DNA of 64,000 bases from an uncultured Chloroflexota bacterium (lineage in GTDB: Bacteria > Chloroflexota > Dehalococcoidia > Lucifugimonadales > UBA826). The DNA lies in NCBI GenBank assembly GCA_913048525.1, contig CAJWWP010000003.1:7190-71189 (forward strand), in the 5' to 3' direction. The notes beneath the pieces were generated by a model, which saw only the letters and a list, made by a program, of their open reading frames with translations, was not told the origin of the DNA and ran no database searches. A program made the translations under genes and the position numbers. Shown here piece by piece: positions 11,997 to 31,323 of the stretch (position 1 is its first letter; every line of letters begins with the position of its first letter).

Positions 11997-12040
11997 TTGG
12001 TCGGGGCACCCTTTTTTTGAAACGTGCGCATCCCGACCAA
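11997..12040 (-). promoter_or_regulatory. 5'-UTR stem-loop of the binding-protein mRNA
   Basis: Inverted repeat TTGGTCGGG/CCCGACCAA. Confidence 0.45.
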
Positions 12041-12065
12041 CTCTTTACGGTCTCTAATATGGTCT

Positions 12066-12093
12066 ATGGTAGAACGTAATTTCCCTATGTCAA
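12066..12093 (-). promoter_or_regulatory. Sigma70-type promoter for the ABC operon
   Basis: Minus-strand TTGACA-N16-TACCAT. Confidence 0.5.
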
Positions 12094-12355
12094 CGTCTTA
12101 TCCGAGTAAGAATAGATAAATTAAGCTGAATAATAGAACAGTGGTGGTCCGCATCCATTCTGAAGGCAGGAATCACTCCCTTTTTTCTTATTCCGAGAGA
12201 CATCAACCGCTTCGCCAAAGTATTCATGCCAGTTCTCTTAAATATCGCCTAAAGTTTACTGTCGCAACACCTGTCACTTTTCAGCTATGATGTGACGGAG
12301 TAGCAGCAACTTTTTAAGGCAATTCATCAGACCGGTAGAGGGAAGGATCAGGAAC

Positions 12356-13501: not shown

Positions 13502-13536
13502 TTTAAATAACCGCCATTACCAGGCCACCAATGAAA

Positions 13537-14334
13537 CTACGACGCGGCGGCCTCTTTGTCCATATTTAGTGCTGTCTGTGACACTGTCTCCATACTTTCA
13601 AGCAAAATAGTGGGGTTTAGCCGACTGGCATGATCTGCATATCCGGCCTTTTCAAGCATGGGTCCCAATTTTCCGCCATTTAGTAGATCAAGAGCCCATT
13701 TAAGAGAATCTGGAGAAGCTGTTTGGTCAAGGTACATCCGTTGATTTTTTGCGCGTGGTCCATAGTGATAATGAGGTGCTCTCTTAAAGCAATCAAATGT
13801 GAGCAACTCAATTTCTTCACCGTTCACATCACCGAGAACGTGAATCGCCACTCCTTCGTCATTAGAGAGGTACCTATACTCAAGACCAAATCGTACGGGC
13901 CCTGCCTCGACAATAACATCCCCTCGGTCATGCATAACCGTTCTTCTTCCTGACACCGATAGGTGCTTTGCGGTTTCCGACACCTGGTCAATAACACCGG
14001 ACATATCCGTATTTTGGACATATTCAGATAGTTCCTGGTATCCAGCCCTTTCGATCATTTCAGGGAGACGACTATAGAATTTATTCAGAACCCAATCCAG
14101 CGAGTCACCCTCCGTCGTAGAGTCCAGCATCAAGCGCTTATTTTGTTTTTCAGGACCGTAATGATAATGGGGCTCATGATCGAAACAATCAAACCTCAGT
14201 AACTCGACTTCTTCGCCGTCTACCTCACCGAAAACATTAATGCACACACCCTGATCGGAAAGTAAATCCCTATACTCCAAACCAAACTTCACTTTGCCGG
14301 TGCCTATGATATTTACGTCAACCTCACTGTTCAT
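13537..14334 (-). CDS. Hypothetical protein built from two tandem copies of a ~130-aa domain (FDCF...PHYHYGP)
   Basis: Internal duplication visible in the translation; GGAGG RBS. Confidence 0.8.
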   Translation of the reverse strand: MNSEVDVNIIGTGKVKFGLEYRDLLSDQGVCINVFGEVDGEEVELLRFDCFDHEPHYHYGPEKQNKRLMLDSTTEGDSLDWVLNKFYSRLPEMIERAGYQELSEYVQNTDMSGVIDQVSETAKHLSVSGRRTVMHDRGDVIVEAGPVRFGLEYRYLSNDEGVAIHVLGDVNGEEIELLTFDCFKRAPHYHYGPRAKNQRMYLDQTASPDSLKWALDLLNGGKLGPMLEKAGYADHASRLNPTILLESMETVSQTALNMDKEAAAS

Positions 14335-14358
14335 ATCAAACCTCCATATCTGTTAATG

Positions 14359-14550
14359 CTACTTTCTCGGTTTATCCTTTTTATTCTCGTTTCCTCGACT
14401 ATTCGCCATTCTCCCAATAAATTCGAATGCATCCACTGACAAACTATCAGATGGCTCATCTACATATTGAGTTTCATCTTTGACTATTTCATGACTTTTA
14501 TCATCTGGCTGGGCCTGATCAGCATTGTTTTCCATGTTTTCTGTGGGCAT
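14359..14550 (-). CDS. Small acidic hypothetical protein
   Basis: 63-aa ATG ORF directly upstream of and co-oriented with the duplicated-domain gene. Confidence 0.45.
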   Translation of the reverse strand: MPTENMENNADQAQPDDKSHEIVKDETQYVDEPSDSLSVDAFEFIGRMANSRGNENKKDKPRK

Positions 14551-14968
14551 TAGAGACCTTCATTATCTATGAACTTCTTATAAACTACTTTGGGCGTTAC
14601 TTTAACCTATTTGTTCTAGGAGACAACCCTCACAGTCACGCTTTGCTAATCTCGCGGAATGGAAAACGACAGACAATCAATATATTGCAGGTTTTGCTTC
14701 ATCGAGGTTCAGAAATCATTTTCCTAATACGGATGATCTGCCAAAACAATAGAGAAGCAAACAAATAAGGTTCGAATCTCCCCTAACAAGTTTTGTCTAG
14801 GAACTGAAGTTCAATTCCTTACTGCTAATTAATGTTTCTATATGCCGAATCATGCCTAGAAATACTACTTTGAAGGAATATTAATACCGGCTCCACCACC
14901 CAATATCAGACCGTGTCGACAAAACCTACTTAAAGGCCTTTTCGTTATCTCATTACTCGATCTATTTA

Positions 14969-14994
14969 CTAAACAACGCTCAGGCACTGTTTAG
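14969..14994 (-). terminator. Stem-loop downstream of the tRNA-Thr / tRNA-Sec-fragment region
   Basis: Minus strand CTAAACAGTGC-CTGA-GCGTTGTTTAG, 11-bp stem with G-U pairs; no clear U-tract. Confidence 0.45.
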
Positions 14995-14997
14995 CTT

Positions 14998-15063
14998 TGG
15001 CAGGAGCACGAGGGAGTCGAACCCACCACACCAGTTGCGGGACTGCTGCCAACGGATTTGAAG
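14998..15063 (-). pseudogene. selC: 3' fragment of tRNA-Sec (selC remnant or att-site scar)
   Basis: Minus strand CTTCAAA (UCA anticodon loop)-TCCGTT, long variable arm, GGTTCGACTCC T-arm, 8-nt acceptor strand GTGCTCCT, GCCA end; 5' acceptor strand, D-arm and 5' anticodon stem are missing. Confidence 0.75.
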
Positions 15064-15093
15064 ATTGTTTGACTAGGAAGCATTAACTTAAAA

Positions 15094-15168
15094 TGGAGCC
15101 GACGGTCGGGTTCGAACCGACGACCTGCTGTTTACAAAACAGCTGCTCTACCACTGAGCTACATCGGC
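15094..15168 (-). tRNA. tRNA-Thr (anticodon TGT)
   Basis: GCCGATGTAGCTCAGTGGTAGAGCAGCTGTTTTGTAAACAGCAGGTCGTCGGTTCGAACCCGACCGTCGGCTCCA: full cloverleaf with encoded CCA; extended -10 TGATATAAT just upstream. Confidence 0.97.
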
Positions 15169-15234
15169 GCCGCCAAGAATTATATCAATGTGTAATACAT
15201 CTAGGATCATTTTGATTTACTTCAACCTTGTTGG

Positions 15235-16395
15235 TTACTCCCTGAATTGCGGTAAAACCTCTTTTCCAAACCATTCTAAATCTTTTCGTATAACACTTGG
15301 AGGGATGCCAAGGCCGCCTAACCCGACTGATATCCTTTCGATTTTTGGAAATCTCTCAATAATTCCAGCGATGTCCTGTTTTATCTTGTCAGGTGGACCA
15401 CAGATCCATGTTCCGTCAGCAACGGCATCTTGCAGGGTAGGTAATCCAACAAGCAAAGCTTTAGCGGGATCGGCCGTAGCCTCTATTTGCTCCTTCGACA
15501 AGTTTTTTACCATTCCTAAAGGTGCTAGCACTTTCAATTGCTCTTCGAAATAGGGCGTTGCTTGCTCAATAGCTTTTCTCTCCGAGTCGGCCATATGTAT
15601 CTGGACACCCAGAGCCAGTCCCTCACCTATAGCTGCTTCCTGACCGGCATTTACTAAAGTTTCTCTCCACCGTTGTGCGGTCTTCTCGGCTGAACCGCCT
15701 GGTGCAGTTCCACCTGCTATCACTCCTTTTATTCCGTGGCTGACCATGAACTCCATCCCTCTCTGACTGCCACTTGCGATTGGCTGCCAGAACTCCACCG
15801 GTCTGGTGAGAGGACGAGGAACAAGAGTAATCTCCCTCAATTCCTTGCCTCTATGTAATCCCTCCGCAGGTATCTCATAATGGGTACCATGATGGGAAAA
15901 AGAATCTTCTGTCCACGCCTTTATAATGATTTCCACTTGCTCCTCAAACAAGTCCCTATTTGCATGGTCATCTTCGAGAGGGGATCCCAAGGTTTCGACT
16001 TCTCTCAAAATATATCCCCTGCCTACCCCAAATCGCACTCTGCCACCTGTCATTACATCAGCTGACGCAAAATCCTCGGCAAGCCTAAGGGGATGCCATG
16101 CAGGAACCGTGTTAAAAAAACCGCCGAAATTCAAACTCTTTGTGTTTTCAGCGAGATAGACACACGTCATTGGAATATTAGGTATTCCTCCAAACCCTTC
16201 TGCCTGAAAGTGATGTTCAGACATCCAGAGAGTGTCAAAACCAAGAGGATCCATAATCTCTGCCATCGCCTTTGCTTCTGAGAAGGCTGAGGAGAGGGTT
16301 TCATTCGACAGATCTCTCTGATCAACAGGAGTCGCGGAAAACCCAGCATCCGGCATCTCAATATGACCGCCATAAAAATAATCAAATTTGACCAA
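15235..16395 (-). CDS. LLM class flavin-dependent oxidoreductase
   Basis: GFDTLWMSEHHF, WHPLRLAEDFA-D-GGRVRFGVGRG. Confidence 0.9.
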   Translation of the reverse strand: MVKFDYFYGGHIEMPDAGFSATPVDQRDLSNETLSSAFSEAKAMAEIMDPLGFDTLWMSEHHFQAEGFGGIPNIPMTCVYLAENTKSLNFGGFFNTVPAWHPLRLAEDFASADVMTGGRVRFGVGRGYILREVETLGSPLEDDHANRDLFEEQVEIIIKAWTEDSFSHHGTHYEIPAEGLHRGKELREITLVPRPLTRPVEFWQPIASGSQRGMEFMVSHGIKGVIAGGTAPGGSAEKTAQRWRETLVNAGQEAAIGEGLALGVQIHMADSERKAIEQATPYFEEQLKVLAPLGMVKNLSKEQIEATADPAKALLVGLPTLQDAVADGTWICGPPDKIKQDIAGIIERFPKIERISVGLGGLGIPPSVIRKDLEWFGKEVLPQFRE

Positions 16396-16455
16396 TGTCG
16401 CCTCCGTTCAAGACAAGTCCTAGGACAGAAATTTAAACAAAACTTGGGAATTATC

Positions 16456-17667
16456 CTAGATCGCTCCAATCTCTTTCAAGTTCGCTATGCTGTCAGGGTC
16501 GTATCCTAATTCTCCTAGAATTTGTTCATTATGCTCCCCCAATTTTGGAGCAAACCCTGGTTTACTTGGTGTTTCTGACATTTTCCATGGTGTCCCATGT
16601 ATCTTTACCTCTTCACCCAACTCGGGGTGCGTTACCGTTTTCACATATCCACTGTCAACAATATTCGGATCCTGAGAAGCCTCCAACATGGTGTTGACAG
16701 GAGCCGCGACTATGTCCGCAGACCGAAGGATATTTATCCAATTATCCCGAGTATTCGTTGCAAAAAGTTCCGCAAGCTTGTCTAGTATTGAATTCTTTTT
16801 TTCCTCCGACTCAAAGGCCATTCCCAGATCGGTCAGGTCTGCCTCCTCCATTGCCTCTAGAAATCCCAAACTTTCCAAGGCGGGCAACCAGTGCCTTGCA
16901 TCCAATTGCATAGCCAGAGGTCTTCCATCAGCATCGTTAAAACAAGCTGCTATCCCAGCTCTATCTCTCGTCCCATTTATGCGAGCACCGGTGATTGGTG
17001 GTTTGTTTTTCCACATGGTAGTTGCCATTGTCCAACCCATAAGGCGAAAAGCACTACCAACTAGAGAGGTCTCAATCTTTTGTCCAACGCCTGTTTCCCT
17101 TGCATGGATCAAAGCGGCGAGCACGCCGCCAAATGTAAGTATTCCGCAGGTTTCATCTGCTACTGAGGCGACACCTGTTCGCATTGGCTGTCCTGGTATT
17201 GAGAACGCTTCTGTAACTCCGCCTATTGCCTGTCCAACCGCGTCCGTTCCGGGAAGAGCCGCATCAGGTCCATCCGGTCCATAGCCAGACACAGATGCAT
17301 ACACAAGTGCCGGATTGATTTTTTTTAGTTCCTCATACCCAAAACCGTATCGTTCCGCAGCCCCAGGCCTAAAGTTTTGACCGAATATATCAGCCCTTTG
17401 GACCAGTTGATGGAGTATCTTCTTGGCTTCATCAGTCCGTAGGTTCAGGGTTAGGCTTTTTACTCCTCTGTTGTTAGTCTCAAAAAAAGAACTCACTTCA
17501 CCCTTCAGTTCTCCAGCTCTACGTGAATTATCTCCTCCGTTGGGAACCTCTATCTTTATTACTTCTGCACCTAGATCTGCCATCAACGAATAGGGTACCG
17601 TTCCTGCTTGCGCAGTCGAGCAGGCCACAACTTTCACGCCGGTTAGCGCGCCTTGCAATTTAGCCAT
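16456..17667 (-). CDS. Class III CoA-transferase (CaiB/BaiF family)
   Basis: ADLGAEVIKIE, NNRGVKSLTLNL, NFRPG, putative catalytic Asp in SVADET, APKLGEHN. Confidence 0.92.
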   Translation of the reverse strand: MAKLQGALTGVKVVACSTAQAGTVPYSLMADLGAEVIKIEVPNGGDNSRRAGELKGEVSSFFETNNRGVKSLTLNLRTDEAKKILHQLVQRADIFGQNFRPGAAERYGFGYEELKKINPALVYASVSGYGPDGPDAALPGTDAVGQAIGGVTEAFSIPGQPMRTGVASVADETCGILTFGGVLAALIHARETGVGQKIETSLVGSAFRLMGWTMATTMWKNKPPITGARINGTRDRAGIAACFNDADGRPLAMQLDARHWLPALESLGFLEAMEEADLTDLGMAFESEEKKNSILDKLAELFATNTRDNWINILRSADIVAAPVNTMLEASQDPNIVDSGYVKTVTHPELGEEVKIHGTPWKMSETPSKPGFAPKLGEHNEQILGELGYDPDSIANLKEIGAI

Positions 17668-17779
17668 TTCTCAGCCTCCTGAATGGTTTAGTCTTTTTTT
17701 CTCTGCCCCGTCGTCTTTTCGCGTTCAATGCTATCTGACATACCGGTGTATTTTCCCTTCAGTCGTTATTAGCGCATTA

Positions 17780-19243
17780 TTAAGCTCGCCGCCAAGCAAC
17801 AACAGACGCTATCAGAGCTCCAAGGGCTATAGCCGCAGCGGCGAAGTATACCAACTTAAACGCAGCCAGATAAGCAACAACTGATTCTGTTGTCGTTGAA
17901 GCGAGCAATATATCCACCCCATGGCCTCTAGAAGAATAAGCCTCTGTGAATAATCCTCCCAAAAGTGCAACGGCGACCACATTTCCGATTCCTCTCGTTA
18001 TTGACGAAAGAGCTCCACCTGTTCCTAGACTTGCTTTACCTGCACTACTCATAACTAAGTTGAGATTTGCACTTTGAAATAATCCCATACCAGCTCCGAT
18101 GATCGTCATTCGTACCGCTAGTGCCGTAACAGACACTCCTATCTCAACAGCCTGATAGGACAACAATCCAAAGATTATTAGTATCGTTCCCACTATGGTC
18201 ACCGGGCCAGGTGTGACACGGTCTGAAAAGTATCCCCCTAGAGGCGCACATAGAGCGAGTGCAAGTGAGTTAACAAGTAGCAAAATTGCCAGAGATGTCG
18301 CTGAGGCCCCCATTATTTCTGAGACGAAATACGGAAGTATAAAAACATTCACAAATGTCGACATGAACATGCAAAGGTTGGCTAGAAGACCCCCAGCCAC
18401 CACCATGTTCTTTAACACCCTCAAGTCAATTAAAGGCTGTTCAAATACGTTCTGACGCTTTATGAAAATCACCCAAATAATGGCTGATATCAACAAAATA
18501 AGAAAGGGTTGACCCCGAACCCAGCCGACCAGTGCCACGATGTTCAAGAATAGGACTATGGTGGTCATTGCAGCGAACACCAGGCCAGCCCCAAGCCAGT
18601 CAAATTTCTTGTTTTCTTCTACTCTTTCGCCGACCCCTCGTAAGAAAAATAAAGTCCCGGCTATTGCAATAAGACAAAAGGGTATCCTGAAAAGAAAAAT
18701 CCACCTCCAAGACGATATTTCTAGCAACGCACCAGCCGAGATAGTGCCTAATATCATTCCCAGGGTCCCTATCCCCGTCATTACTCCTAGAGCCCGTCCC
18801 CTGATTTCCCTTGGAAACATAGACGTAACCAATGCGGGAGCAATAGCCGCTAAAGACGCATTGCCGAGCGCTTGAAGCACCCTGAAGCCTATAACGGTGT
18901 TAATGGTAGGAGATAAACTGATAGCAACCATCGCTACCGTATAAACAAAAAGCCCTATTAAGAAAATCCGGCGAAGTCCGAAAGTATCTCCTGCACCCCC
19001 AATGCCCAACTGGAGACCTATAGTAGTTCCCAAATAGAACGTAATCATTAGATATACAATTCTGGGCTCAGCCGAAAAATAGTCAGATATTGCCGGTAAG
19101 GAGACGTTAACGGTGACATCAAGAGCGACTAGAAAAACCCCTGACGACACAACAACTAACTGTGCCCAAAGCCGCCACCCAACGCTGTTCTCTATCGGCT
19201 TAGAGCCTGACAGCTGGCGCAAATTAATCCCATTCCCATTCAA
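17780..19243 (-). CDS. MFS transporter (14-TM, DHA2/EmrB-like)
   Basis: LDVTVNVSLP, GDTFGLRR, WRWIF motifs, many TM segments; 20-nt overlap with obgE. Confidence 0.88.
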   Translation of the reverse strand: MNGNGINLRQLSGSKPIENSVGWRLWAQLVVVSSGVFLVALDVTVNVSLPAISDYFSAEPRIVYLMITFYLGTTIGLQLGIGGAGDTFGLRRIFLIGLFVYTVAMVAISLSPTINTVIGFRVLQALGNASLAAIAPALVTSMFPREIRGRALGVMTGIGTLGMILGTISAGALLEISSWRWIFLFRIPFCLIAIAGTLFFLRGVGERVEENKKFDWLGAGLVFAAMTTIVLFLNIVALVGWVRGQPFLILLISAIIWVIFIKRQNVFEQPLIDLRVLKNMVVAGGLLANLCMFMSTFVNVFILPYFVSEIMGASATSLAILLLVNSLALALCAPLGGYFSDRVTPGPVTIVGTILIIFGLLSYQAVEIGVSVTALAVRMTIIGAGMGLFQSANLNLVMSSAGKASLGTGGALSSITRGIGNVVAVALLGGLFTEAYSSRGHGVDILLASTTTESVVAYLAAFKLVYFAAAAIALGALIASVVAWRRA

Positions 19244-20570
19244 CGGTACCCAAACGAACCGTATCCCCCTGCTTTATCCCTGCCCCTTCTAGTGCCCTTA
19301 CAACACCAGTTTTTTGCATATGTCGATACAATTGCATACGAGCCATCCAGTCTTCGTAATCAATTCTTTCTGCGATACGTTCAACCCCGGGGGCATCGAC
19401 AACAAAAACATCATTTTCAATAAATATACCAACACCCTGTCTCTTTGGTATTGGCCTCAGTACCGGTACCTCTTTTTCCATATCTAGCGAGCCTATTTTG
19501 GGAAGATCTATAGCGGCTACGCCTGAAAGAACCTTGTCTTCGCCATCCTCCACCTGAACAACTACAGGGTTAAAGGGTCTTTCATCTCCAACTTTCTCAG
19601 GTTCAAGGGCCACCAAAACCGCATCAATTAACTTACTAATCCCTTCACCTGTTGCAGCAGAAACGACGTGTATGTCAGTCCCTTCGATATCCAAGGATTG
19701 GACTATTTCTTCCCTGAGTACTTTCACTTCCTCCAAGTCAGCCTTGTTTATGGCAATTATCTGAGGCTTTTCATCAAGCTTTTCATCAAACAAACGAAGC
19801 TCGTCATTAATCTGCCTAAAGGTTGACCCCGGGTCTTCGCCGGCACCGTCAACCATATGAATAAGCAATCGTGTTCGTTCAATGTGCCGAAGGAACTCAT
19901 GGCCCAAGCCAACTCCTTTGTGAGCACCTTCAATCAATCCTGGAATATCAACCATCACTATCGTCTTATCTCTATGCTCAACCACACCTAACACAGGCTC
20001 AAGTGTCGTAAATGGGTAGTCAGCTATCTTTGGAACCGCAGAGGTTAAGTAACTAATCAAGCTAGACTTCCCTGCGTTAGGGGCACCTATAATCCCTACA
20101 TCCGCTAGCATCTTTAATTCCAATTTTAGTTCTATTTCTTCACCCCTTTCCCCCGCCTGAGCAATAACCGGATACTGGTTTGTAGAGGATACGTATTTAA
20201 CATTTCCATAGCCCCCTGAGCCACCAGGAGCCGCAATAAATTCCTGATCATGCTCAGTCACATCAACGATAAGATCATTTCCATTCCATACCTGTGTTCC
20301 TACAGGCACATTAACGACTACATCGGCTCCATCTGATCCATGCTTCTTAACACTCCCCCCATTTCCGCCATTTTTTGCTTGAAAAACACGTCTATATCTA
20401 AACTGTAAAAGCGTGTTTTCATTAGAGTCTCCTTTGATGACAATGTTGCCGCCTCTTCCACCATCCCCACCATCTGGTCCTCCTCTTGGCACAAATTTCT
20501 CATGCCTCCCACTTATAGCGCCATCCCCACCAGAGCCACTTTTTATTTGAATTATTACTTCATCAATCAA
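19224..20570 (-). CDS. obgE: GTPase ObgE/CgtA
   Basis: Gly-rich Obg domain (GGPDGGDGGRGG), GAPNAGKSS, DYPFTT, DIPGLIEGA, NKAD, C-terminal OCT domain. Confidence 0.97.
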   Translation of the reverse strand: MIDEVIIQIKSGSGGDGAISGRHEKFVPRGGPDGGDGGRGGNIVIKGDSNENTLLQFRYRRVFQAKNGGNGGSVKKHGSDGADVVVNVPVGTQVWNGNDLIVDVTEHDQEFIAAPGGSGGYGNVKYVSSTNQYPVIAQAGERGEEIELKLELKMLADVGIIGAPNAGKSSLISYLTSAVPKIADYPFTTLEPVLGVVEHRDKTIVMVDIPGLIEGAHKGVGLGHEFLRHIERTRLLIHMVDGAGEDPGSTFRQINDELRLFDEKLDEKPQIIAINKADLEEVKVLREEIVQSLDIEGTDIHVVSAATGEGISKLIDAVLVALEPEKVGDERPFNPVVVQVEDGEDKVLSGVAAIDLPKIGSLDMEKEVPVLRPIPKRQGVGIFIENDVFVVDAPGVERIAERIDYEDWMARMQLYRHMQKTGVVRALEGAGIKQGDTVRLGTVEWEWD

Positions 20571-20594
20571 AGTTTTCTCCTTTTGGAGAAGTTT

Positions 20595-20830
20595 TAGAAG
20601 GGATAATAATAAGAATAATAATCCCGTGGATATTGTTGATTATGTTCCTGATAGGCGTGGGATTCAAACGAATATTAGCACGAATAATAGTGTAGATAAT
20701 GTGGATAAAATTATTATGGTTGTGGATATTTTTAATAATAGTCATAGGTTGTTGATAATTAGACAAACTTATACACAAATATTACAAGTTGATAACATTA
20801 AATTCTAAGATATCCACAGATTTATATAGA
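20595..20830. other. Probable chromosomal replication origin (oriC)
   Basis: AT-rich spacer with ~9 DnaA-box-like 9-mers (perfect TGTGGATAA 20700-20708; TTATACACA 20769-20777; 1-mismatch boxes at 20691, 20721, 20750, 20810), TAA trio run at ~20603-20622, and a visible change from C/A-rich to G/T-rich plus strand. Confidence 0.85.
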
Positions 20831-20862
20831 AAATCTAGCCATATATTATTTGGAGAAGTGCC

Positions 20863-22191
20863 ATGACTCAAAGTAAGGACTTTATATCTGATCTATTAAA
20901 CGAGAAGTCCATTTTTCAATCGTATCTTGATGTAGAAGCAGCACTTGCAAGAGCTCAGGCTGCACTGGGTGTAATTCCTCAATGGGCGGCGGACATAATA
21001 TCTGAAAAATCCAACTTGGAACTCTTGAATATGGAGAATGTTTATTCAGGTCTTGAAAAAACAGGACACCCACTAGTCCCTCTCATCTGGGAATTGGATA
21101 GAGTTTGTGGGCCACAGGCAGGAGGATATATTCACTGGGGAGCAACAACTCAAAATATCACACAGACGGGAAAACTATTATTGGTCAAACAATGCCATGC
21201 TTACTACAAACAGGAATTGGGAAAACTCCTACTCACACTGGCAGAACTTGCTGAGAGATCAAAAAATTATACGATGCCAGGACGAACCCATGGTCAGCAT
21301 GCTGTGCCAGCAACTTTTGGATATAAAGTTGCTGTTTGGATTGACGAGCTAATTAGACATACAGAGAGAATGACTAGCTGTGAAGATAGAGTGTTCGTAG
21401 CGATGCTTGGAGGGGGAGCAGGAACGATGGCTTCTGTTGGTTTAGAGGGACTGAAAACACAAGATCTTATAGCAGAGGAATTGGGAATTAGTTCAATGTC
21501 AATGCCCGCTAGAACAATAGGTGACCACCTGACGGAGTACATCACAATTTTGGCAATGCTGGCCGCAACATCAAGCAAGATGGCGCGGGAGGTCTATACC
21601 ATGATGAAGCAGGAGTTTGGTGAAGTGGAAGAGCCCGTTCCGGTCGGTGCGGTAGGCTCGTCTACGATGCCGCAGAAGCGCAACCCTCGTCTTAGTCAGG
21701 ATGTTGTGGCATGGGCTTCGGAAGTGCGCACCTATGTGCCTATGTCTTTAGAAGCTATGCAAACGGAGCATGAAGCCGATAAAACTACTAGCATGATGAT
21801 AAATACGGCAATCAATAGGGTTTGTTTTTTGACCGGCAAGATTATAGATGGATTGAATGAAATTTTCTCCGATATAAACCTGTTTCCGGAGAGAATGAGG
21901 AAAAATCTTGATCTGTCAGGTGGACTTATCATGTCTGAAAGAGTGATGCTTGAACTTGGGAAAGAGATAGGAAGGCAAAGAGCCCATGATGCCGTTTATG
22001 AAGCGGCTCAAAGGGCGGTTAATGAAGGAAGGGCATTTAGTGAAACTTTGGCGGAAGAAAAGGAAATAGCCTCGTTACTATCGACGGAACAGATTGACGA
22101 TCTTCTAGATCCTGAGCGATACACTGGTCTATGTGCTTACTTTGCCGAAACATTTGCAGAAAAAGCACGGGTGGTCTCAAGGGACCTGTAG
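20863..22191 (+). CDS. Adenylosuccinate lyase / 3-carboxy-cis,cis-muconate cycloisomerase family lyase
   Basis: HWGATTQN, GRTHGQHA, fumarate-lyase signature GSSTMPQKRNP. Confidence 0.88.
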   Translation: MTQSKDFISDLLNEKSIFQSYLDVEAALARAQAALGVIPQWAADIISEKSNLELLNMENVYSGLEKTGHPLVPLIWELDRVCGPQAGGYIHWGATTQNITQTGKLLLVKQCHAYYKQELGKLLLTLAELAERSKNYTMPGRTHGQHAVPATFGYKVAVWIDELIRHTERMTSCEDRVFVAMLGGGAGTMASVGLEGLKTQDLIAEELGISSMSMPARTIGDHLTEYITILAMLAATSSKMAREVYTMMKQEFGEVEEPVPVGAVGSSTMPQKRNPRLSQDVVAWASEVRTYVPMSLEAMQTEHEADKTTSMMINTAINRVCFLTGKIIDGLNEIFSDINLFPERMRKNLDLSGGLIMSERVMLELGKEIGRQRAHDAVYEAAQRAVNEGRAFSETLAEEKEIASLLSTEQIDDLLDPERYTGLCAYFAETFAEKARVVSRDL

Positions 22192-22210
22192 CTACGGGTT
22201 GATTTGGAAA

Positions 22211-23404
22211 CTATTTGAGGCCTATAGGCAAACTATTTGGGATAGTATCTGAAGCTCTCAGATTGGCTAATTCAGAGTCTGATATTCCGAAGCTTTTTAA
22301 AATGGCATTTGTGTCGCCGCCGAAAGAGGGAGGCTCAACCTCAACTAGATCACATTCAGACATGACGACGGGATTACCCGGCCAGGTTACGTCACCCCAA
22401 TGACGAGATCCTTTAATATTTTCTTCCTCATTATGAATATTTCCATAGGTTCGTTCAACGACAATTCCTCTTCTCCTATTTCCTTCCTCTCTATGAAGCT
22501 CGGAGGCGTATTTGTTTATTGCAACGGGAACTCCAGCAGAGGAGAGTAGAGAAACCCAGTGGGTACTTGTGTTAGTGAGAAATATGTCTTGCAGATGCTG
22601 ACTACTTGGATGACTATCCATATTAGCGAAAGAGGGAATAGATTGAAGTGCAAGCGATTCATCACTATTTGAAACAGAAAGAAAAATCCAAGAGTCGTCT
22701 GCACATTTATACAACTGGTTAAAGGAATCAGTTCCTCTTATTCCTGGACCCCCTAAATCGCGACGACTATATCCTGGATAATCAACATGATAAGGTCCGG
22801 TAATGGTCGCAGAAGTATAAGAAAGTGCGGCCTCTATTTTTTGCCCTCTTCCAGTTTTTTCCCGATCCAGCAAAGCAAGCATGACGGCATAAGCAGCGGA
22901 GATACCGGTTCCGTAGTCGTTCAAAGTGAAAGTAGCGGGACGAGGTCTTTGTGGCTGTTGGGGGTCAGAGACTCCAGCGTTGCGCAGTTGTATTCCCGTA
23001 GCGGCCTGCGCATTTTGCTCAAAGCCGGGTCGCATCTGCCAGGGGCCTTCCTGCCCGAAGCAGTTTATGGAGCCATAAATAATTTCCGGATTTAGATTCT
23101 TCAAAGCCTGGTATCCAATACCTAGTCTATCGGCAACACCTTTGCGAAATCCTTCCAACACTACGTCAGCCTTACCGGCCATAGTTAGGAAGGTGTCGAG
23201 TCCCCCAGGTTTTCCTAGGTTGAGTGCGATGCTTTGCTTTCCTCTCCCTACGTCAAGCCAGGGCGTGAGTTGAGGGGGGCGAAAGTCAGGATCTACCTTG
23301 ATTACATTGGCTCCATACTGAGCTAATGTACGCCCACATGTGGGCCCAGCAAGAACTATGCAAAGATCCAGCACAGTCACACCATCTAAAGGAAGGTCAT
23401 TCAT
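22211..23404 (-). CDS. Class III CoA-transferase subunit carrying the catalytic Asp
   Basis: PLDGVTVLDL, AGPTCGRTLA-YGA-VIKV, GFRKG, LNDYGTG; ATG at 23404 just after the upstream stop. Confidence 0.88.
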   Translation of the reverse strand: MNDLPLDGVTVLDLCIVLAGPTCGRTLAQYGANVIKVDPDFRPPQLTPWLDVGRGKQSIALNLGKPGGLDTFLTMAGKADVVLEGFRKGVADRLGIGYQALKNLNPEIIYGSINCFGQEGPWQMRPGFEQNAQAATGIQLRNAGVSDPQQPQRPRPATFTLNDYGTGISAAYAVMLALLDREKTGRGQKIEAALSYTSATITGPYHVDYPGYSRRDLGGPGIRGTDSFNQLYKCADDSWIFLSVSNSDESLALQSIPSFANMDSHPSSQHLQDIFLTNTSTHWVSLLSSAGVPVAINKYASELHREEGNRRRGIVVERTYGNIHNEEENIKGSRHWGDVTWPGNPVVMSECDLVEVEPPSFGGDTNAILKSFGISDSELANLRASDTIPNSLPIGLK

Positions 23405-23411
23405 ACTGAAG

Positions 23412-24497
23412 TTAATTATCTCCCGGCATCTCAGGAGCAGGTGTTTTGACCTGTCCAAGATTCCCGTGGGTTTTAACAAGTAATCCCGGTTGTTTCATCC
23501 TCCCGAATATTGGGTCATTTATCTGAACGACTGCACCCGAGTCTGAAGCCTGTGGTTCGTCTAGCCATTCATCCACTGTTCTGCAGGCAGTTCCGGGAAC
23601 TCCAATATGTTCCATAAAGGTTTCCCACTCAAGTGCTGTTCTCTCGCTCCATATTTCCTCGAACTTTTGGTTCCATTCTTCTAAAAGGTCGCCATCGGAA
23701 TTCAGCAGTTTATTATCAGTCAGGTGATCCAGCCAGTCGGGGTGTCCTATTGCTTCAAGAAAAGGTTCTAAAAATCGAGGAATTGCGATGTTTACATTGA
23801 TCCATCTGCCATCTCGGCATCGATAAAAACGAGCAATAACCGGATGCCCCTCCTGTTTACCATGCGGTCTTTGCGAGTGTCGCACTAGTGCAGTGCCCAT
23901 ACCTTGGTACATTGAGTCGTGGATAGGCACTGTTATTTGCTGCCCCTTTCCTGTTTTTCCTCGGTATAGCAATGCAGCTGTTACAGCGGGAGCCGCTGTT
24001 ATTGCGGCGAAGGTGCTGGCGTAATAAAGTTCATGGAAGGAAGGCCCCTCTTCTGGTACTGGGTCATCTCCGGATGGGTTAAGAGCATAAACACCGGAGC
24101 TGGCAGCCACCAGACCTTCACGTGCTGGTAACCAACCCAGTGGATGATCTTCTTGAAATGCTGGAATCGATACCACCACGGGCTCCTTATCAGCAGTTAT
24201 CTGGGAGAGGGAGGCAAATGTAAGACCAAGAGCGGTTTTCTCGGAAGCATCAAGACATTCGATGACTATATCAGCGCCATTGGCAAAATGAACGACTGTA
24301 TTCTTCGAGTAAGTGGACAAAGAGGAAAATTTTCCTCGATTCCACACTGCGAACTCTTCCGTACCCCTGGAAGGGTCTCCACCTAGAGGCTCTATCTTAT
24401 GAACGTCAGCTCCTTGGTCTGCTAAAAGCATCCCAAGTATAGATCCAGCCGGATAGCGGCTGAACTCGACTACCTTATATCCGGCTAAGACACCCAT
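23412..24497 (-). CDS. Class III CoA-transferase subunit, degenerate (no Asp at the catalytic position)
   Basis: LADQGADVHKIEP, WNRGK, YRCRDGRW; YYASTFAA in place of the Asp motif. Confidence 0.85.
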   Translation of the reverse strand: MGVLAGYKVVEFSRYPAGSILGMLLADQGADVHKIEPLGGDPSRGTEEFAVWNRGKFSSLSTYSKNTVVHFANGADIVIECLDASEKTALGLTFASLSQITADKEPVVVSIPAFQEDHPLGWLPAREGLVAASSGVYALNPSGDDPVPEEGPSFHELYYASTFAAITAAPAVTAALLYRGKTGKGQQITVPIHDSMYQGMGTALVRHSQRPHGKQEGHPVIARFYRCRDGRWINVNIAIPRFLEPFLEAIGHPDWLDHLTDNKLLNSDGDLLEEWNQKFEEIWSERTALEWETFMEHIGVPGTACRTVDEWLDEPQASDSGAVVQINDPIFGRMKQPGLLVKTHGNLGQVKTPAPEMPGDN

Positions 24498-24533
24498 AAG
24501 AAAAACTAAAGCTGGTAAGGGTTACCCCCTTAC

Positions 24534-26174
24534 TTACCTGTACTGATCTATCCCAATGGTTGCAGAAGATGGCCCCGACGGAAAAACTAAGGTTTTAGCT
24601 CGATCTGCGCCTACAACGACTATGTCTATATCGTCTGGGCTATGAAGCAATGGAACTTCGGTGGACAGAATTTCTTCTTCGGTCTGATTCCGTAGGTAGT
24701 GCCAATTTTCATGCACACGGGCATCTCCCAAAGGCATGTACTGGATCATTTTACCGAGGCTATTATTGGCATGCTTATGTATGAACTCTCTTGCATCTTT
24801 TTTGGAGAAACCTTCCCCACCTACGGGGCCAGCAACGTCCGGAGGCATGAAGATTAACCTTTCATGCCCTCCGGCACGACTTCCACCGAGGGTTGTGTTT
24901 CCAAAGGTGATTCCATAGGCTAAAGTTTTCAACAAACCTTCGGCTGAAGTGTTTCCTTGATCCTGTACGTCTAGCTCACCGTCGGTTACGAAAATTGATA
25001 TAGCACTTTCACTGGCTTTGAATCCACGATCTTCTGCATATGAAGGCCAAGGACTCATATCCTCATTTTCGCCTAAGCAGTGAACAAATTTTCGAGTCGT
25101 TCCGATCGTGTCCATATCCATCTTATTCGGATACCACATTCCTATGTTTTTAAGGCAAAGGTAAAAAGCTCTCCCGATTATGATGTTTATTTCATTATCT
25201 CGACCAGGACCCAGAGCTGATCTTGGATTGAGACCAACCTCTTTGGCAATAGGTCCGTTTACTACGAGAATAGGGGCATGAGGGCTTGTGGACATTAAAA
25301 GGGACTTTCCTCCATGTTCCCCCATTTCAGAAAGACATTTGACTGCAGCGATTATTATTGGCATGTGTTCAGGTTTGGCTCCTGCCAGAGCGGAATTTAT
25401 CGCTATTTTTTCCACTGTGGCAAGTCCAAATCCAGGGGGCATGTCGCACACTACGTGGTCAGATGGGAGGCTGGTACCGGATATTAGATCAGCAACTGCA
25501 GATTCTGTCGGAGGAAAAACAGGGAGAGCATCAGACCAATCCCTGCGAGTGTAGTCAGAGTTCATTTTCAGGATAGCGTCAAATCTGTCTTCACCCTCAT
25601 ATCTCAGTGTAGACTCTTGGTCTTCTGGGGTGGTGTCGTTGGTACTGTCGGCGGTGAGACACGAGATTAATTCATCCATTACCTCTTCTGTCTGAGTGAC
25701 ACATAGGTTGTCGGCGAGATTACGATATATTCTTGGGACGATCACAAACTGCAAATCAGGCATGCCAAAAGCTCGACTACTGGCCAGGGCGTCGTCTTCG
25801 AATCGCCCGGAAACGATTGGGACAGCTGGCTTACCCATTTTTTCTATTTCAATCATGTCGTGGCACATCCACGACGCGCATGTCCCTCAATCAGCCGTTG
25901 CACCTATTACGACATCACATTCCTCTCCTGCTTGTTTCACTATTGGAGGTGGGGTGGGGTAGTTTCCGCCCGTGTAAAAGTTAATACTTACATCGCTGAA
26001 ACGTTCTTGGATGATTTCGCCAGCACGATTTAAAGCTAGGTCACCACCGTGCGTGCCACTCCAGACAAGGCCAATAGTTAGACCGTCTAGAGATTTGGGT
26101 CTGGGGTTGGTTCTTAATATGTTCATCATCCCACGCTGTTGAGCGACAGGATTAGATACTTCCAGTAGGTGCAT
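24534..26174 (-). CDS. UGSC-family-like selenoprotein (U96 in a UGTC motif) with a large C-terminal domain, 546 aa with Sec readthrough
   Basis: ORFs 25887-26213 and 24534-25868 are in frame, separated by TGA plus 6 sense codons: ATAD-U-GTCASWMCHD; GGAGG RBS before ATG 26174; SECIS-like hairpin follows the UGA. Confidence 0.85.
25854..25882 (-). promoter_or_regulatory. Putative bacterial SECIS element
   Basis: mRNA UGA-GGGACAUGCGC-GUCGUGG-AUGUG-CCACGAC: perfect 7-bp stem starting 11 nt after the UGA, with GU in the loop. Confidence 0.7.
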
Positions 26175-26278
26175 TATTAACCTCCATTTGTTAGCGGTAA
26201 TGACTAGTGGCACCGATTATACAGACCAACGCCGTCAACTGCCGTTATAATTGAAAACCTAAAACTTAGGATAGGTAT

Positions 26279-26908
26279 GTGATGAATGACATGGAGCCAT
26301 GCGGGTTGCTCGTTGCCACTAGAAACGCTGCGAAGATGCAAGAATTAATGGTCCTTCTCGGGGACACCAGGTATAACCTGCTGTCCTTGAATGAGATGTC
26401 CATTGACCCGGGTTACGAGGTGGAGGAAACTGGCTCGACTTTTGAGGAAAACGCGATATTGAAAGCTGAGGGCTATGGTGCTATTTCGGGAATGATGACG
26501 CTTGCCGACGACTCTGGTCTTGAAGTTGATGCACTGGGTGGTGCCCCGGGGGTTTTATCTGCCCGGTATGGTGACGAAACATTAGATGATTTGGGCAGAA
26601 ATGAGCTGCTCCTCAAAAACGTGTATGGATTGCCAGAAGAGGAACTTACTGCCCGGTTTAGGTGTGTTGTGGCTATTTATACTCCGGGTGATGGGACAGT
26701 GACTTTTGATGGAAAGATTGAAGGCAATATCACACATAATCCTCGAGGTGGCAATGGGTTTGGGTATGACCCCTTATTTTTTTTCCCACCTAAGGCTAAA
26801 ACACTTGCGGAGATACCCTCCAGGGAAAAACATGAGGTATCACATAGAGGTACTGCGGTGAGGCAGGCAGCAAGCTACTTGCGAGAAAGAGGTGAGTCTG
26901 GATGTTGA
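26279..26908 (+). CDS. rdgB: Non-canonical purine NTP pyrophosphatase (RdgB/Ham1)
   Basis: ATRNAAK, ETGSTFEENA, ADDSGLEVDALGGAPGVLSARY, GFGYDP, SHRG. Confidence 0.95.
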   Translation: MMNDMEPCGLLVATRNAAKMQELMVLLGDTRYNLLSLNEMSIDPGYEVEETGSTFEENAILKAEGYGAISGMMTLADDSGLEVDALGGAPGVLSARYGDETLDDLGRNELLLKNVYGLPEEELTARFRCVVAIYTPGDGTVTFDGKIEGNITHNPRGGNGFGYDPLFFFPPKAKTLAEIPSREKHEVSHRGTAVRQAASYLRERGESGC

Positions 26909-27918
26909 AAGCTGAACCTCTAGATAAACTGTCCCGCCCTCTAAGGGATTTAAGGGTGTCTGTGACGGATCGTTGCAATTTTCGATGTCCTTACTGCATG
27001 CCCGCTGAAATTTTTGGCGAAAGATACGAGTTCCTCCCAAGAAATGACCTTTTGACGTTTGAAGAGATAACTCGAATCGTTCTGCTGTCAACTCAACTTG
27101 GTGTGAAGAAAGTCAGATTGACGGGGGGTGAACCTCTTATAAGACAGGATATCGTTGAGCTTGTATCAATGATAGCAAATATTGGTGCCATAGAAGATTT
27201 GGCTATGACAACCAACGCTTATCTTCTCTCTGGAATGGCAGAAAGCCTGAAAAAAGCAGGGTTGCAAAGGATAACAGTGAGTCTAGATTCTATTGACGAC
27301 GAAGTATTTCGTAAGATGAATGGCCGAGGATTCGGGACAGCAAAAGTTATGGATGGTATAGCTGCAGCGAAAGAGGCTGGTCTGGACCCAATTAAAATCA
27401 ATGCTGTTGTGCAAAAAGGTATTAATGACGACACATTGGTTGAACTAGCACGGTGGTGTCGAGATAACGGCTACACCCCGCGGTTCATTGAGTACATGGA
27501 TGTGGGTACATTAAATGACTGGAAGTTAGACGAGGTGCTCCCAGCGGCTGATATTGTGAGAATAATAGAGAGGGAATTTGCGATTGAACCTATTGAACCT
27601 TCCTACCAGGGAGAAGTTGCAAAAAGATATAGCTATAAGGATGGGAAAGGGGAGTTTGGGGTTATTTCGTCTGTGACGCAACCGTTTTGTGGTGACTGCA
27701 CTAGGCTGCGACTATCTCCAGAGGGACAAATTGTCACGTGCCTGTTTGCGGACGGAGGAACTGATCTTAGGGGACCCATGAGAGACAACATTACTGATAA
27801 GGATTTGCTGAATCTCATGTCAGGAACCTGGACAAATAGGGAGGATCGTTACTCAGAGATTCGTACGTCAATGACTAGCCCAAGAAAAAAGGTTGAGATG
27901 TACCACATAGGTGGCTAA
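26902..27918 (+). CDS. moaA: GTP 3',8-cyclase (radical SAM)
   Basis: LRVSVTDRCNFRCPYCMP, FC-C-RLR...CLF twitch domain, C-terminal IGG. Confidence 0.96.
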   Translation: MLKAEPLDKLSRPLRDLRVSVTDRCNFRCPYCMPAEIFGERYEFLPRNDLLTFEEITRIVLLSTQLGVKKVRLTGGEPLIRQDIVELVSMIANIGAIEDLAMTTNAYLLSGMAESLKKAGLQRITVSLDSIDDEVFRKMNGRGFGTAKVMDGIAAAKEAGLDPIKINAVVQKGINDDTLVELARWCRDNGYTPRFIEYMDVGTLNDWKLDEVLPAADIVRIIEREFAIEPIEPSYQGEVAKRYSYKDGKGEFGVISSVTQPFCGDCTRLRLSPEGQIVTCLFADGGTDLRGPMRDNITDKDLLNLMSGTWTNREDRYSEIRTSMTSPRKKVEMYHIGG

Positions 27919-27933
27919 GAAGAGGAAATTCTT

Positions 27934-28884
27934 TTGTCAATGATCACTATCTACACTGACGGGGCTTGCATAGGGAATCCTGGACCAGGAGGTTGGGGGG
28001 CTGTTATATCTGGTGACGGTCCCCAAAGGTCTCTTCATGGTAGAGACTCGGATACAACCAATAATCGTATGGAAATCCTCGCTGTAATTAGAGGCTTGGA
28101 AGATTTACCCGAAAATTCCGATATTACTGTTTATTCCGATTCTTCCTATGTCATTAACACCATGACGAAGAACTGGAAACGAAACAAAAATCAGGACCTC
28201 TGGAAAATCCTTGATGGAGAAGTCGGCAAGAGGAATGTCCAGTGGGTTTGGGTTAAAGGACACGCTGGGGATCCGCTAAACGAAGAGGCCGACCGTCTTG
28301 CGCATTCGGAGGCTGTTGGGAAGCCCGTTTCACCTGTTGGAGAAACATCACCAAATATAGTGGGAGGGGTAGCAATGGAGCAAAAAGAAGAAAAAGACTT
28401 ATTTGGTAAGGTTGATAAGTTAACCCATGTTGACGAGCATGGAGAAGCCAGAATGGTAGATGTTGGAAGTAAACCTGATACTGATCGGGTGGCGGTAGCA
28501 AAGGGGTTTGTGAAGATGAAAGCCCAGACGATCGAGTTAGTAAATGCAAATGGAGTTGAAAAAGGGGATGTTTTGGCTGTTGCTCGAGTCGCTGGAGTTA
28601 TGGCAGCGAAGCAGACTTCGAATCTTATTCCTCTCTGCCATCCATTGCCATTGACGCAAGTGACCATCGATTTTGATATTGATATAGAGACCTCAACTAT
28701 TTTAATAACAGGGATTGCAAAGACTAGAGGGAAAACCGGGGTGGAGATGGAAGCTTTAACAGCAACCTCTGTGGCTGCTTTGACCATATATGACATGTGT
28801 AAGTCCGTGGATCGAGGAATGAGTATGGGAGCACGTCTTTCCAGTAAGACCGGCGGACAATCAGGGGATGTTTTTTTAGACTAA
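27934..28884 (+). CDS. rnhA-moaC: Fusion of ribonuclease HI and cyclic pyranopterin monophosphate synthase MoaC
   Basis: N-half YTDGAC-GNPGPGGWG, TNNRME, SDS-Y, WVKGHAG...NEEAD; C-half LTH...MVDV, LIPLCHP, GVEMEAL, YDMCKSVD; no stop between them. Confidence 0.9.
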   Translation: MSMITIYTDGACIGNPGPGGWGAVISGDGPQRSLHGRDSDTTNNRMEILAVIRGLEDLPENSDITVYSDSSYVINTMTKNWKRNKNQDLWKILDGEVGKRNVQWVWVKGHAGDPLNEEADRLAHSEAVGKPVSPVGETSPNIVGGVAMEQKEEKDLFGKVDKLTHVDEHGEARMVDVGSKPDTDRVAVAKGFVKMKAQTIELVNANGVEKGDVLAVARVAGVMAAKQTSNLIPLCHPLPLTQVTIDFDIDIETSTILITGIAKTRGKTGVEMEALTATSVAALTIYDMCKSVDRGMSMGARLSSKTGGQSGDVFLD

Positions 28885-28891
28885 ATTGGCT

Positions 28892-29902
28892 CTATAGAGA
28901 TTTCTTTTTATTTGCTAAGGAACTTAAAATTTCCAGTATGACCCTGAGCGCTGCCTCGGCGGTAATGTTTGCTGGTCCTTCGTAGTCGGGAGCTACCTCA
29001 ACTACATCTGCAGCAATTGTTTCCACTGAGCCAACGATGGTTCTAACAGCTCGAAGTAATTCCACGGATGTAAGCCCTCCAGGCTCAGGAGTTCCGGTCG
29101 CAGGTGCAAATGCTGGGTCCAGTACGTCTATATCTACAGAAAGATAGATTAATTCGGGACCATCGAGAGCCTCTGATATTGCATCATCTAGTACAGGATC
29201 GAAGCCACGTGTTTCGATTTCCGACATCTGGTGCCATCTCATTCCCTGTTCTCGCATCCAGTCAAATAGGGTATGCGGTGGCCAGTAGCCGCGTAGCCCA
29301 ACTTGGACAAAATTTTTCCCTTGCACGATTCCATCTTCTATAAGTCGTCTCATAGGGCTGCTGTGTGATGCCAAGACGCCTCCGTAGGTGGCGGGGGCTG
29401 TGTCAGCATGAGCATCAAAGTGGACAATACCGACCTTGCCAGGTCCGTAATGGTTTGCAACTGCTGTTGCAGATGGGAGAGTGATCGAATGATCTCCCCC
29501 GACAACTATTGGAAGAGCGCCAGCTTTGAGGCACTGAGAGACTTTGGCTTGGATAGCTTCATGGCTTCGTTCAAGCGAACTAGGAGGACAATTGGCATCT
29601 CCAAAATCTGCCACTGAAAGAACATCGGTTGGATATACCTGTAGGCCCATGTGATACAAATCGTCATTTGGGGCACCAAAATACCCAGCCTGACGAATGG
29701 CTCTTGGACCGAACCTAGCGCCTGGCCGATTTACAACACCCATATCAAAAGGTGCTCCCATGATCGCAACTTCGACACCTTGTTCCTTTAACCCTTCAGG
29801 GGTTTGTATCAATGGGCTTTGTAGAAACGTTGAGACCCCAACAAAAGATGGCATATCTGCGTCTGAGTTTCTGTATATTGGATCATCTCCAGGTTTTCCC
29901 AA
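28892..29902 (-). CDS. speB: Agmatinase / ureohydrolase family protein
   Basis: GARFGPRAIR, GGDHS, DAHAD, SVDIDVLDPAFAP-TGTPEPGG. Confidence 0.85.
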   Translation of the reverse strand: MGKPGDDPIYRNSDADMPSFVGVSTFLQSPLIQTPEGLKEQGVEVAIMGAPFDMGVVNRPGARFGPRAIRQAGYFGAPNDDLYHMGLQVYPTDVLSVADFGDANCPPSSLERSHEAIQAKVSQCLKAGALPIVVGGDHSITLPSATAVANHYGPGKVGIVHFDAHADTAPATYGGVLASHSSPMRRLIEDGIVQGKNFVQVGLRGYWPPHTLFDWMREQGMRWHQMSEIETRGFDPVLDDAISEALDGPELIYLSVDIDVLDPAFAPATGTPEPGGLTSVELLRAVRTIVGSVETIAADVVEVAPDYEGPANITAEAALRVILEILSSLANKKKSL

Positions 29903-29994
29903 AGTCGTTCTCCTTGCTAACTATCGGTGTGCGTTTAGTAATCGTAGCATTCAAAGTTTTTCTGTTTGCCATCTGTATAGGTTAGAGTACGGTA

Positions 29995-31323
29995 ATGATT
30001 GCAGATTACCCAGAAGGCTGGACAACTAGAGTTCTTACACGTTTGCTTGGGCCGGCTATGGCCTTTCCTTCCTTCAGGGTATTCTGGTTCGGTACCCTTG
30101 CATCGGTATGTGGTTTCCAGGTGCTTAGTTTTGCACAGTTCTGGATTGTTCATCGTCTGACAGGTGACCCCTTGTTTTTAGGATGGGTTGGTCTTGCCAC
30201 CGCGGTTCCTGCGATTGTTTTGAATCTTTTTGGCGGAGTTTTGGCTGACAGGTTGGAGAGGCGAAAGCTTATCGCTGTGACTCAAACTGTGAACGGTTTA
30301 ATTATCTTAATCCTCGCAGCAGTGACGTTTACTGGGATAGTGCAAGCGTGGCATGTGATAGTGCTTGCCTTCTTTGCAGGAGCTGTGAATGCTTTTGATC
30401 AACCCGCAAGAATGGCTCTATATCCAATTCTGATCGATCGCTCTGTGATGATGAACGCAGTTTCTCTTAATAGTGCTATCTGGACGGGAACTAGGATTAT
30501 AGCTCCAGCAGTGGCGGGTTTGATTATTACGGTTGTGGGAGAAGGGTTCTCATTTCTTCTTTCGGCCATGGGCTTTTTCACCCTGGCTATGGTTGTTGTG
30601 CGTCTAAAAGTTCCAGATGGCATCAAGCCCGAGAGGCCGCAAAGAAAGTCTCGTTCGGATCTGATCGAGGGAATTAAATTTATCTTGGGGAATTCGATAT
30701 TTACTTTCTTGATAGCAATCACTTTTTTTAATAGCTTTTTTGGAATGTCTGTTATTCCGATGATGCCTGTGTTTGCAGTTGATATTCTGAAGGTCGGGGC
30801 AGATGGGCAGGGAGTCATGATGGGTGTTGGTGGGGTGGGGGCTTTTGCTATGACTCTAGGGCTGGGAAGGGTTGGGAATCTGAGGCATAGGGGAATGATG
30901 ATAGTGGTGGGATCCGCTGTGTTCGGACTGTCTCTAACATTGTTGGCGATAAGTTCGAAACAGCTTGGGAATTACCCTCTAGCGGTCTTTTTGATGTTTG
31001 TCATGGGCGCATTTAGCTCTGTTTACATGATTTCTATCATGAGTTCTCTCCAATTAATGGTGCCAGATCATATGAGAGGACGTGTTATGGGTTTTTATGG
31101 GATGACGTGGAGCATTATGCCTTTGGGTGCCATGTACACGGGAGCACTTGCCAAAGTGTTTGCTGACGCTGGCGAAGGTGTCCCGCTCGCTGTTGCTATT
31201 GGGGGAATCCTGGTCACACTGTTTGCTGTCGGTCCGATTGTAATGAATAAAGGAATACGCGATCTGGATGTAATCATCGAGGAAAGACAAAATATTAGGG
31301 AATCAACAGCTGGAGTAGCATAG
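29995..31323 (+). CDS. MFS transporter (DHA3/EntS-like)
   Basis: GGVLADRLERRK, FDQPAR, LQL-VPD-MRGRVMG; ~12 TM. Confidence 0.88.
   Translation: MIADYPEGWTTRVLTRLLGPAMAFPSFRVFWFGTLASVCGFQVLSFAQFWIVHRLTGDPLFLGWVGLATAVPAIVLNLFGGVLADRLERRKLIAVTQTVNGLIILILAAVTFTGIVQAWHVIVLAFFAGAVNAFDQPARMALYPILIDRSVMMNAVSLNSAIWTGTRIIAPAVAGLIITVVGEGFSFLLSAMGFFTLAMVVVRLKVPDGIKPERPQRKSRSDLIEGIKFILGNSIFTFLIAITFFNSFFGMSVIPMMPVFAVDILKVGADGQGVMMGVGGVGAFAMTLGLGRVGNLRHRGMMIVVGSAVFGLSLTLLAISSKQLGNYPLAVFLMFVMGAFSSVYMISIMSSLQLMVPDHMRGRVMGFYGMTWSIMPLGAMYTGALAKVFADAGEGVPLAVAIGGILVTLFAVGPIVMNKGIRDLDVIIEERQNIRESTAGVA

Follow-up and report, generated by a model that had tools for sequence, protein, structure and literature searches.

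At this locus, on the minus strand of a 64,000-nucleotide stretch from an uncultured Chloroflexota bacterium (the window), a 108-aa ORF (from GTG 26213) and a 444-aa ORF share one frame, which raises the question of whether they are two genes or a single selenoprotein gene and, if the latter, what kind of enzyme the gene encodes. Reading of the sequence confirmed the hidden frame that had been proposed in the original prediction: a single frame of 546 aa runs from 26174 to 24534 with one in-frame TGA at 25889-25887, so that 95 codons run from ATG 26174 up to the UGA, and the minus-strand translation places U96 in the context VIGATAD-U-GTCASWMCHDMIEIEKMGKPAV. The GGAGG that was said to precede ATG 26174 is likewise present, and in 67 of 74 relatives the start codon follows an RBS-like word. 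The features of the gene, several of them predicted, are the following:

24534..26174, minus strand: full gene, 546 aa with the putative Sec96, a UGSC module fused to a partner domain
26181..26185, minus strand: GGAGG, candidate ribosome-binding site, 6 nt before ATG 26174
25653..26153, minus strand: UGSC module, residues 8-174 (Pfam PF24696), predicted flavodoxin-like alpha/beta/alpha fold, probable remote GrdB/PrdB homologue
25887..25889, minus strand: in-frame UGA, codon 96, read as selenocysteine on the basis of TGA in relatives and Cys in distant homologues
25878..25880, minus strand: Cys99, second residue of UxxC, Cys in 80/80 covering sequences, window included
25857..25875, minus strand: putative SECIS hairpin, 7-bp stem and 5-nt loop, with the loop 18 nt from the UGA
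24537..25619, minus strand: partner domain, residues 186-546, "Unknown_1" of PMC2398784 by motif comparison
25377..25379, minus strand: Ala266, at the position of the AGC-motif Cys conserved in most members, by row comparison

Comparison with relatives indicates that the two apparent genes are almost certainly one, with the internal UGA encoding selenocysteine. Among the best 80 of 187 confirmed loci, 78 cover codon 96 (2 do not), and all 78 have TGA at this codon and the literal motif UGTC, retaining UxxC, while their terminal stops vary (TAG 38, TAA 21, TGA 18, contig end 1). These loci are not independent of each other, since one of the six seed peptides adjoined the UGA and the loci are related. 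The 18 nt from the UGA to the second ATG occur in 15 DNA variants, every one encoding GTCASW, indicating that the stretch after the UGA is translated. Furthermore, crude counts over 78 pairs point to purifying selection on both sides of the UGA, with a median pN/pS of 0.16/0.92 upstream and 0.20/0.97 downstream. In the distant set (56 sequences that align across the site, from 150 listed representatives of 4,070 at E 0.001 or better), full-length homologues have Cys at position 96 in 43/56 and CxxC in 36/56; thus the comparison of residue 96 that had been suggested beforehand returned TGA in the relatives and mostly Cys at greater distance, in support of Sec read-through. Cys at position 96 is absent from 13 of the 56 distant fusions and CxxC from 20, so that some family members may be non-redox. 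The expectation that standard annotation would split the gene was also borne out: each of the 120 database homologues listed measures 407-450 aa, covers 75-81% of the query and comes without the catalytic N-terminus, and gene callers split the gene wherever it was looked at. RNA-run contigs from 4 of 24 listed runs span both sides of the UGA, one of them bridging it, and are not counted as expression evidence because DNA carry-over is possible; promoter and terminator scans gave chance-level results only.

The hairpin downstream of the UGA is as originally described, with a perfect 7-bp stem (GUCGUGG/CCACGAC) that begins 11 nt after the UGA, a loop AUGUG, and the ATG of the second ORF (25868) forming the AUG of that loop. 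The 11-nt spacing is that of the E. coli fdhF SECIS. A 60-nt fold reaches -14.6 kcal/mol (z -2.64), which 2 of 200 shuffles equal, and a perfect stem of at least 7 bp starting 9-13 nt past a TGA follows just 2 of the genome's 476 long frames that end in TGA and, by the same rule genome-wide, 180 of 71,268 TGA triplets, so that the hairpin is beyond chance. At four stem wobble positions, synonymous constraint is stronger than anywhere else in the gene: those of A100 (79/80) and S101 (78/80) compare with a median of 0.46 over 115 four-fold sites, and those of D106 (79/80) and H105 (68/70) with 0.70 over 85 two-fold sites. All seven stem pairs are intact in 77/78 loci, and 99.7% of cells pair on 51 of the 79 sequences (43 distinct). 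Compensatory change is seen at one pair, G-C to A-U in 2 related genomes, and 47 of 500 shuffles also reach one such pair. With a loop of 5 nt, a stem of 7 bp, a distance of 18 nt and -14.6 kcal/mol, the hairpin fits the bacterial SECIS rules on geometry (loop 3-9 nt, stem 4-16 bp, loop 16-37 nt from the UGA) and energy (MFE -7.5 or lower) (PMC13188914). The bacterial consensus has a G within the first two loop positions (PMC13188914); the G of AUGUG is third, and in 46/78 relatives (AUGGU, AUGAU) an A-U closing pair would make it second. Taken together, wobble constraint, pair conservation and agreement in size, distance and energy support the SECIS function that had been predicted.

The genome (1.88 Mb, 87% complete) was expected to carry the Sec machinery, and in large part it does: selA, selB and selD were found, each above its curated cut-off, and selD itself carries an in-frame TGA. 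An intact selC did not emerge, a full tRNA-Sec not exceeding the Rfam cut-off in this genome; only the 5' half is present, on contig C76, which ends after the first 47 nt including the UCA anticodon, and these are identical (47/47 nt) to a relative's full tRNA-Sec. As a separate observation, the window holds the 3' two-thirds of a tRNA-Sec, from the anticodon loop on (14991-15063, minus strand), which is 92-95% identical to relatives' selC and lies about 30 nt behind tRNA-Thr(TGT), the sole Rfam match in window 12000-30000; three relatives that match this piece show just their full selC. The piece looks like an integration-site remnant, which may account for the assembly break inside selC. Among same-family genomes, 22/28 carry the orthologue as a fusion containing one TGA (in one case truncated at a contig end), and selA is found in 20 of these 22, the remaining two being 86-87% complete; the 28 genomes probably overlap with the set of relatives' loci. 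Of 151 genomes sampled across the phylum (a tally that includes genome G043), 16 contain a homologue at E 1e-10 or better, in many cases as a fusion with one TGA. The closest loci, at 94-97% protein identity, are labelled SAR202 or Dehalococcoidia, and a cultured carrier is Candidatus Lucifugimonas marina JH545, whose locus is 67% identical and which has a tRNA-Sec. Genes for luciferase-like monooxygenases, class III CoA-transferases and enolase-family proteins are plentiful in the window, a content that suits SAR202. Elsewhere in the genome, on the plus strand of contig C7 near 17738, reading by eye showed an in-frame TGA within a U-P-Y-C motif of thioredoxin-like type, and this candidate presumably resembles AhpF N-terminal-domain selenoproteins.

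The window protein is a variant of a known, uncharacterised selenoprotein family. Residues 8-174 match Pfam PF24696 (UGSC) with 97.4 bits against a gathering cut-off of 25, and the UxxC sits where the genome's own NF041046 member has its UxxC, the window motif being UGTC rather than a literal UGSC. The match to NCBIfam NF041046 (86.1) is below the curated cut-off of 125, as it is for three other fused members, while two stand-alone paralogues pass. As the original prediction stated, UGSC selenoproteins are described from marine metagenomes, and they rank among the most abundant selenoproteins of ocean surveys (255 sequences, 37 samples; PMC2398784, Table 2), and both the family and the UGSC/Unknown_1 fusion are already described, the latter in 2008 (PMC2398784, Fig. 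S1A and Dataset S1). By eye, the domain order and the C-terminal domain motifs match the Fig. S1A alignment and two Dataset S1 reads from GOS, so that the architecture is known; a term search of Dataset S1 returned 0 occurrences of UGTCASW and DUGTC (PMC2398784). The partner domain of the window differs from these fusions in having Val in PxHA and Ala in place of the conserved Cys highlighted in the 2008 figure (PMC2398784). Indeed, position 266 is Ala in 29/29 rows of the clade to which the window gene belongs, compared with Cys in 95/114 other rows, and by this comparison the clade has lost the partner's conserved Cys. The clade is distinct (29 of 78 rows, FastTree support 100) and consists mostly of SAR202/Dehalococcoidia, with Entotheonella/Tectomicrobia copies (L029-L033) nested inside, a hint of possible transfer.

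The UGSC and partner modules occur together, either fused or adjacent. In relatives, stand-alone UGSC matches adjoin a partner gene in 39 of 46 cases (34 with the partner first, 5 with UGSC first), while only 39 of 66 stand-alone partner matches lie beside a listed UGSC match, a count in which 9 matches are unlisted and many contigs are short. Fusions in reverse order also exist, cut at the UGA position (P0227, P0249), and this genome has two further loci with partner and UGSC as separate adjacent genes, each UGSC with a TGA. In these split pairs (L013:376-2007 on contig C31 and L014:358-2013 on contig C88) the partner gene comes first, and both UGSC proteins pass NF041046 and have an extra Cys of the UGSCSxC type. 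Four proteins of 713-741 aa (P0243, P0244, P0247, P0268) show two partner-domain matches, with the UGSC module absent. The surroundings are less constant: neighbouring CoA-transferase, lyase and Moa genes were considered as functional partners and rejected, because they recur in just 12-14 of 81 loci, nearly all close relatives, and across the 81 loci no conserved neighbour names a substrate. Close by, RNase HI and MoaC domains are combined in a single ORF (window 27934-28884); relatives have them either fused or separate.

The full-length AlphaFold2 model is a confident two-domain model (pLDDT 95.4, pTM 0.94). In its N-terminal module, strands and helices alternate through five units, and residue 96 falls between strand 3 and helix 3. 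The structural matches listed for this module are sandwiches of a generic flavodoxin- or Rossmann-like type, the best being a designed protein (Z 11.9, rmsd 2.8, 124 residues); thioredoxin-titled entries are absent from the matches listed and may exist beyond them. The Sec module is thus predicted to be flavodoxin-like rather than thioredoxin-like, with Sec96 at the start of helix 3, which differs from the Trx-like fold or role suggested for UGSC in PMC2398784 and repeated in PMC13188914. The resemblance to GrdB noted at the outset holds as remote homology, and on profile evidence the UGSC module is very probably a remote homologue of GrdB and PrdB. In hhalign, the module (84 of 144 rows) matched 25 GrdB/PrdB-like proteins, which are read-through products from Chloroflexota, with 94% probability and E 1.4e-7 and with Sec in register, over 58-84 columns only and with Cys standing for UGA in both profiles. 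Four GrdB-like proteins alone gave 93%, compared with at most 4.6% for 30 control families and 0.2% for a reversed profile; the GrdB/PrdB profile itself reached 19.8% against one control. The genome's stand-alone UGSC paralogue matches TIGR01917 GrdB over residues 333-412 (E 2.3e-4). The window protein itself gave no GrdB/PrdB match in NCBIfam (to E 0.01) or Pfam (to E 10), of which only the NCBIfam test is a fair one, since Pfam GRDB matches stop just before the Sec. A1 against a single PrdB-like protein gave E 0.19, which is not significant, and PDB sequence searches with the window protein, its profile and a PrdB-like protein returned nothing significant. In GrdB (TIGR01917/TIGR01918) and PrdB (TIGR04483), too, the UxxC comes behind a strand and leads into a helix that ends in E-x-x-G-x-P, but these proteins are 240-430 residues long, compared with about 175 for the window module. 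The relationship between UGSC and GrdB/PrdB was not found in the literature searched, which was largely open-access.

The partner domain has no Pfam or NCBIfam match. Modelled alone it folds confidently (pLDDT 94.8), without a Foldseek match at E 0.001 or better, and its best VIA result among 48,161 chains has Z 5.9 across 82 residues, from which neither a new fold nor the lack of one follows. Conserved residues include D215, N330, R335 and E369. The partners of GrdB and PrdB, GrdE and PrdA, are unrelated to it by profile, and assignment as GrdE/PrdA was not supported in a comparison with 3 GrdE-like proteins (0.1%); profile comparison supported neither an internal repeat nor a second UGSC-like module. 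Moreover, grd and prd genes are absent from the recurring neighbours of the relatives' loci, and PF09338 and PF04723 (the GrdE/PrdA and GrdA families) were not found in the 87% complete genome, where the controls were silent too. On contig C9 of the same genome (L101:1453-2646) there is a 397-aa PrdB-like selenoprotein candidate with an in-frame TGA in UxxC, which matches TIGR04483 at E 2e-44, under the cut-off, and continues for about 160 further residues at its C-terminus; the genome that holds it gave no match to the PrdA/GrdE family.

In D-proline reductase the Sec of PrdB attacks the substrate held by PrdA (PMC11229817, Fig. 1 legend), the U151C exchange in PrdB abolishes activity, and Sec has been inserted into PrdB by amber suppression (PMC11229817). 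The window protein is likely a selenol-dependent small-molecule reductase in which a GrdB/PrdB-type Sec module works with a partner that holds the substrate, a mechanism which as a whole is proposed tentatively, at somewhat less than an even chance. The partner domain is predicted to hold a small organic substrate, and by analogy with D-proline reductase Sec96 would attack a C-N, C-S or oxidised-sulfur bond of the bound molecule. The adduct would then be resolved by Cys99, leaving a selenenylsulfide for a protein of thioredoxin type to re-reduce; the thioredoxin-like UxxC candidate on contig C7 speaks in favour of this scheme. Since the partner does not appear to be PrdA or GrdE, substrate activation would not use a pyruvoyl group.

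Alternatively, the selenoprotein could be a general thiol-disulfide or peroxide oxidoreductase, whose UxxC module services the partner, as the real enzyme or a scaffold, or other proteins. This is unlikely, although UxxC is a common redox motif, a Trx-like role is assumed in PMC2398784, the conserved Cys of most partners could need reduction, and in P0266 the partner is fused to a peroxiredoxin/thioredoxin-like (AhpC/TSA-thioredoxin-like) domain instead of UGSC; the predicted flavodoxin-like fold argues against it, as does the clade without the partner Cys266, which still keeps its Sec in 78/78 loci. A second possibility starts from the partner model, for which the best Foldseek rows are class I (iron-sulfur) fumarate hydratases (7xky_A, E 1.1e-3, TM 0.23), which also align over the greatest length in VIA (176 and 184 residues): the partner would be a metal or iron-sulfur enzyme distantly like these, with the Sec module acting as a ligand or keeping the centre reduced. 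Cys243, Cys340 and Cys366 are indeed invariant in 81/81 clade sequences, but Cys243 and Cys340 are mostly other residues outside the clade, and the structural alignment to the fumarase alpha subunit is long but weak, with scores within background (VIA Z only 4.0-4.3, rmsd 5.8-6.2) and with profile support absent (hhalign against 18 fumarase alpha sequences, 1.8%), so that a class I fumarase is not supported and the wider metal-centre reading is improbable. About equally improbable is a Sec module that carries selenium, sulfur or a soft metal, or senses redox state, and turns over no organic substrate; the members that lack one or both Cys (20/56 without CxxC) and a gene that stands alone with no pathway around it would suit such a role, whereas the homologues GrdB and PrdB are catalytic and the partner has many near-invariant polar residues of active-site-like character. 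Finally, that the UGA is a real stop, in two translationally coupled genes or a pseudogene, or is recoded otherwise, for example as Trp, is very improbable: the 444-aa ORF has its own entries in databases, the assembly of this genome contains no complete selC and a GAGG is present about 16 nt upstream of the second ATG, but codon 96 is never other than TGA, the protein sequence encoded between it and the second ATG is maintained, as is the hairpin, homologues with Cys run through the site uninterrupted, TGA normally terminates genes here (10 of 44 window genes end with it), and a full tRNA-Sec(UCA) is present in 4/5 relatives tested.

The reading as a selenol-dependent reductase can be extended to a wider one, which is speculative and, taken as a whole, rather unlikely: UGSC and its partner would form a third, widespread branch of GrdB/PrdB Sec-reductases with no pyruvoyl subunit and with a partner of undescribed fold, the several paralogues carried by SAR202 would reductively cleave C-N or C-S bonds in marine dissolved organic matter, and the window clade would run on Sec96/Cys99 alone. 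New in this analysis are the probable link to GrdB/PrdB, the predicted non-thioredoxin fold and the clade's apparent loss of the partner Cys. As the 120 listed database homologues come without the catalytic N-terminus, SAR202 annotations miss the active site of the gene. With the module placed alongside GrdB and PrdB and tied to one partner, an orphan family becomes a testable two-module enzyme.
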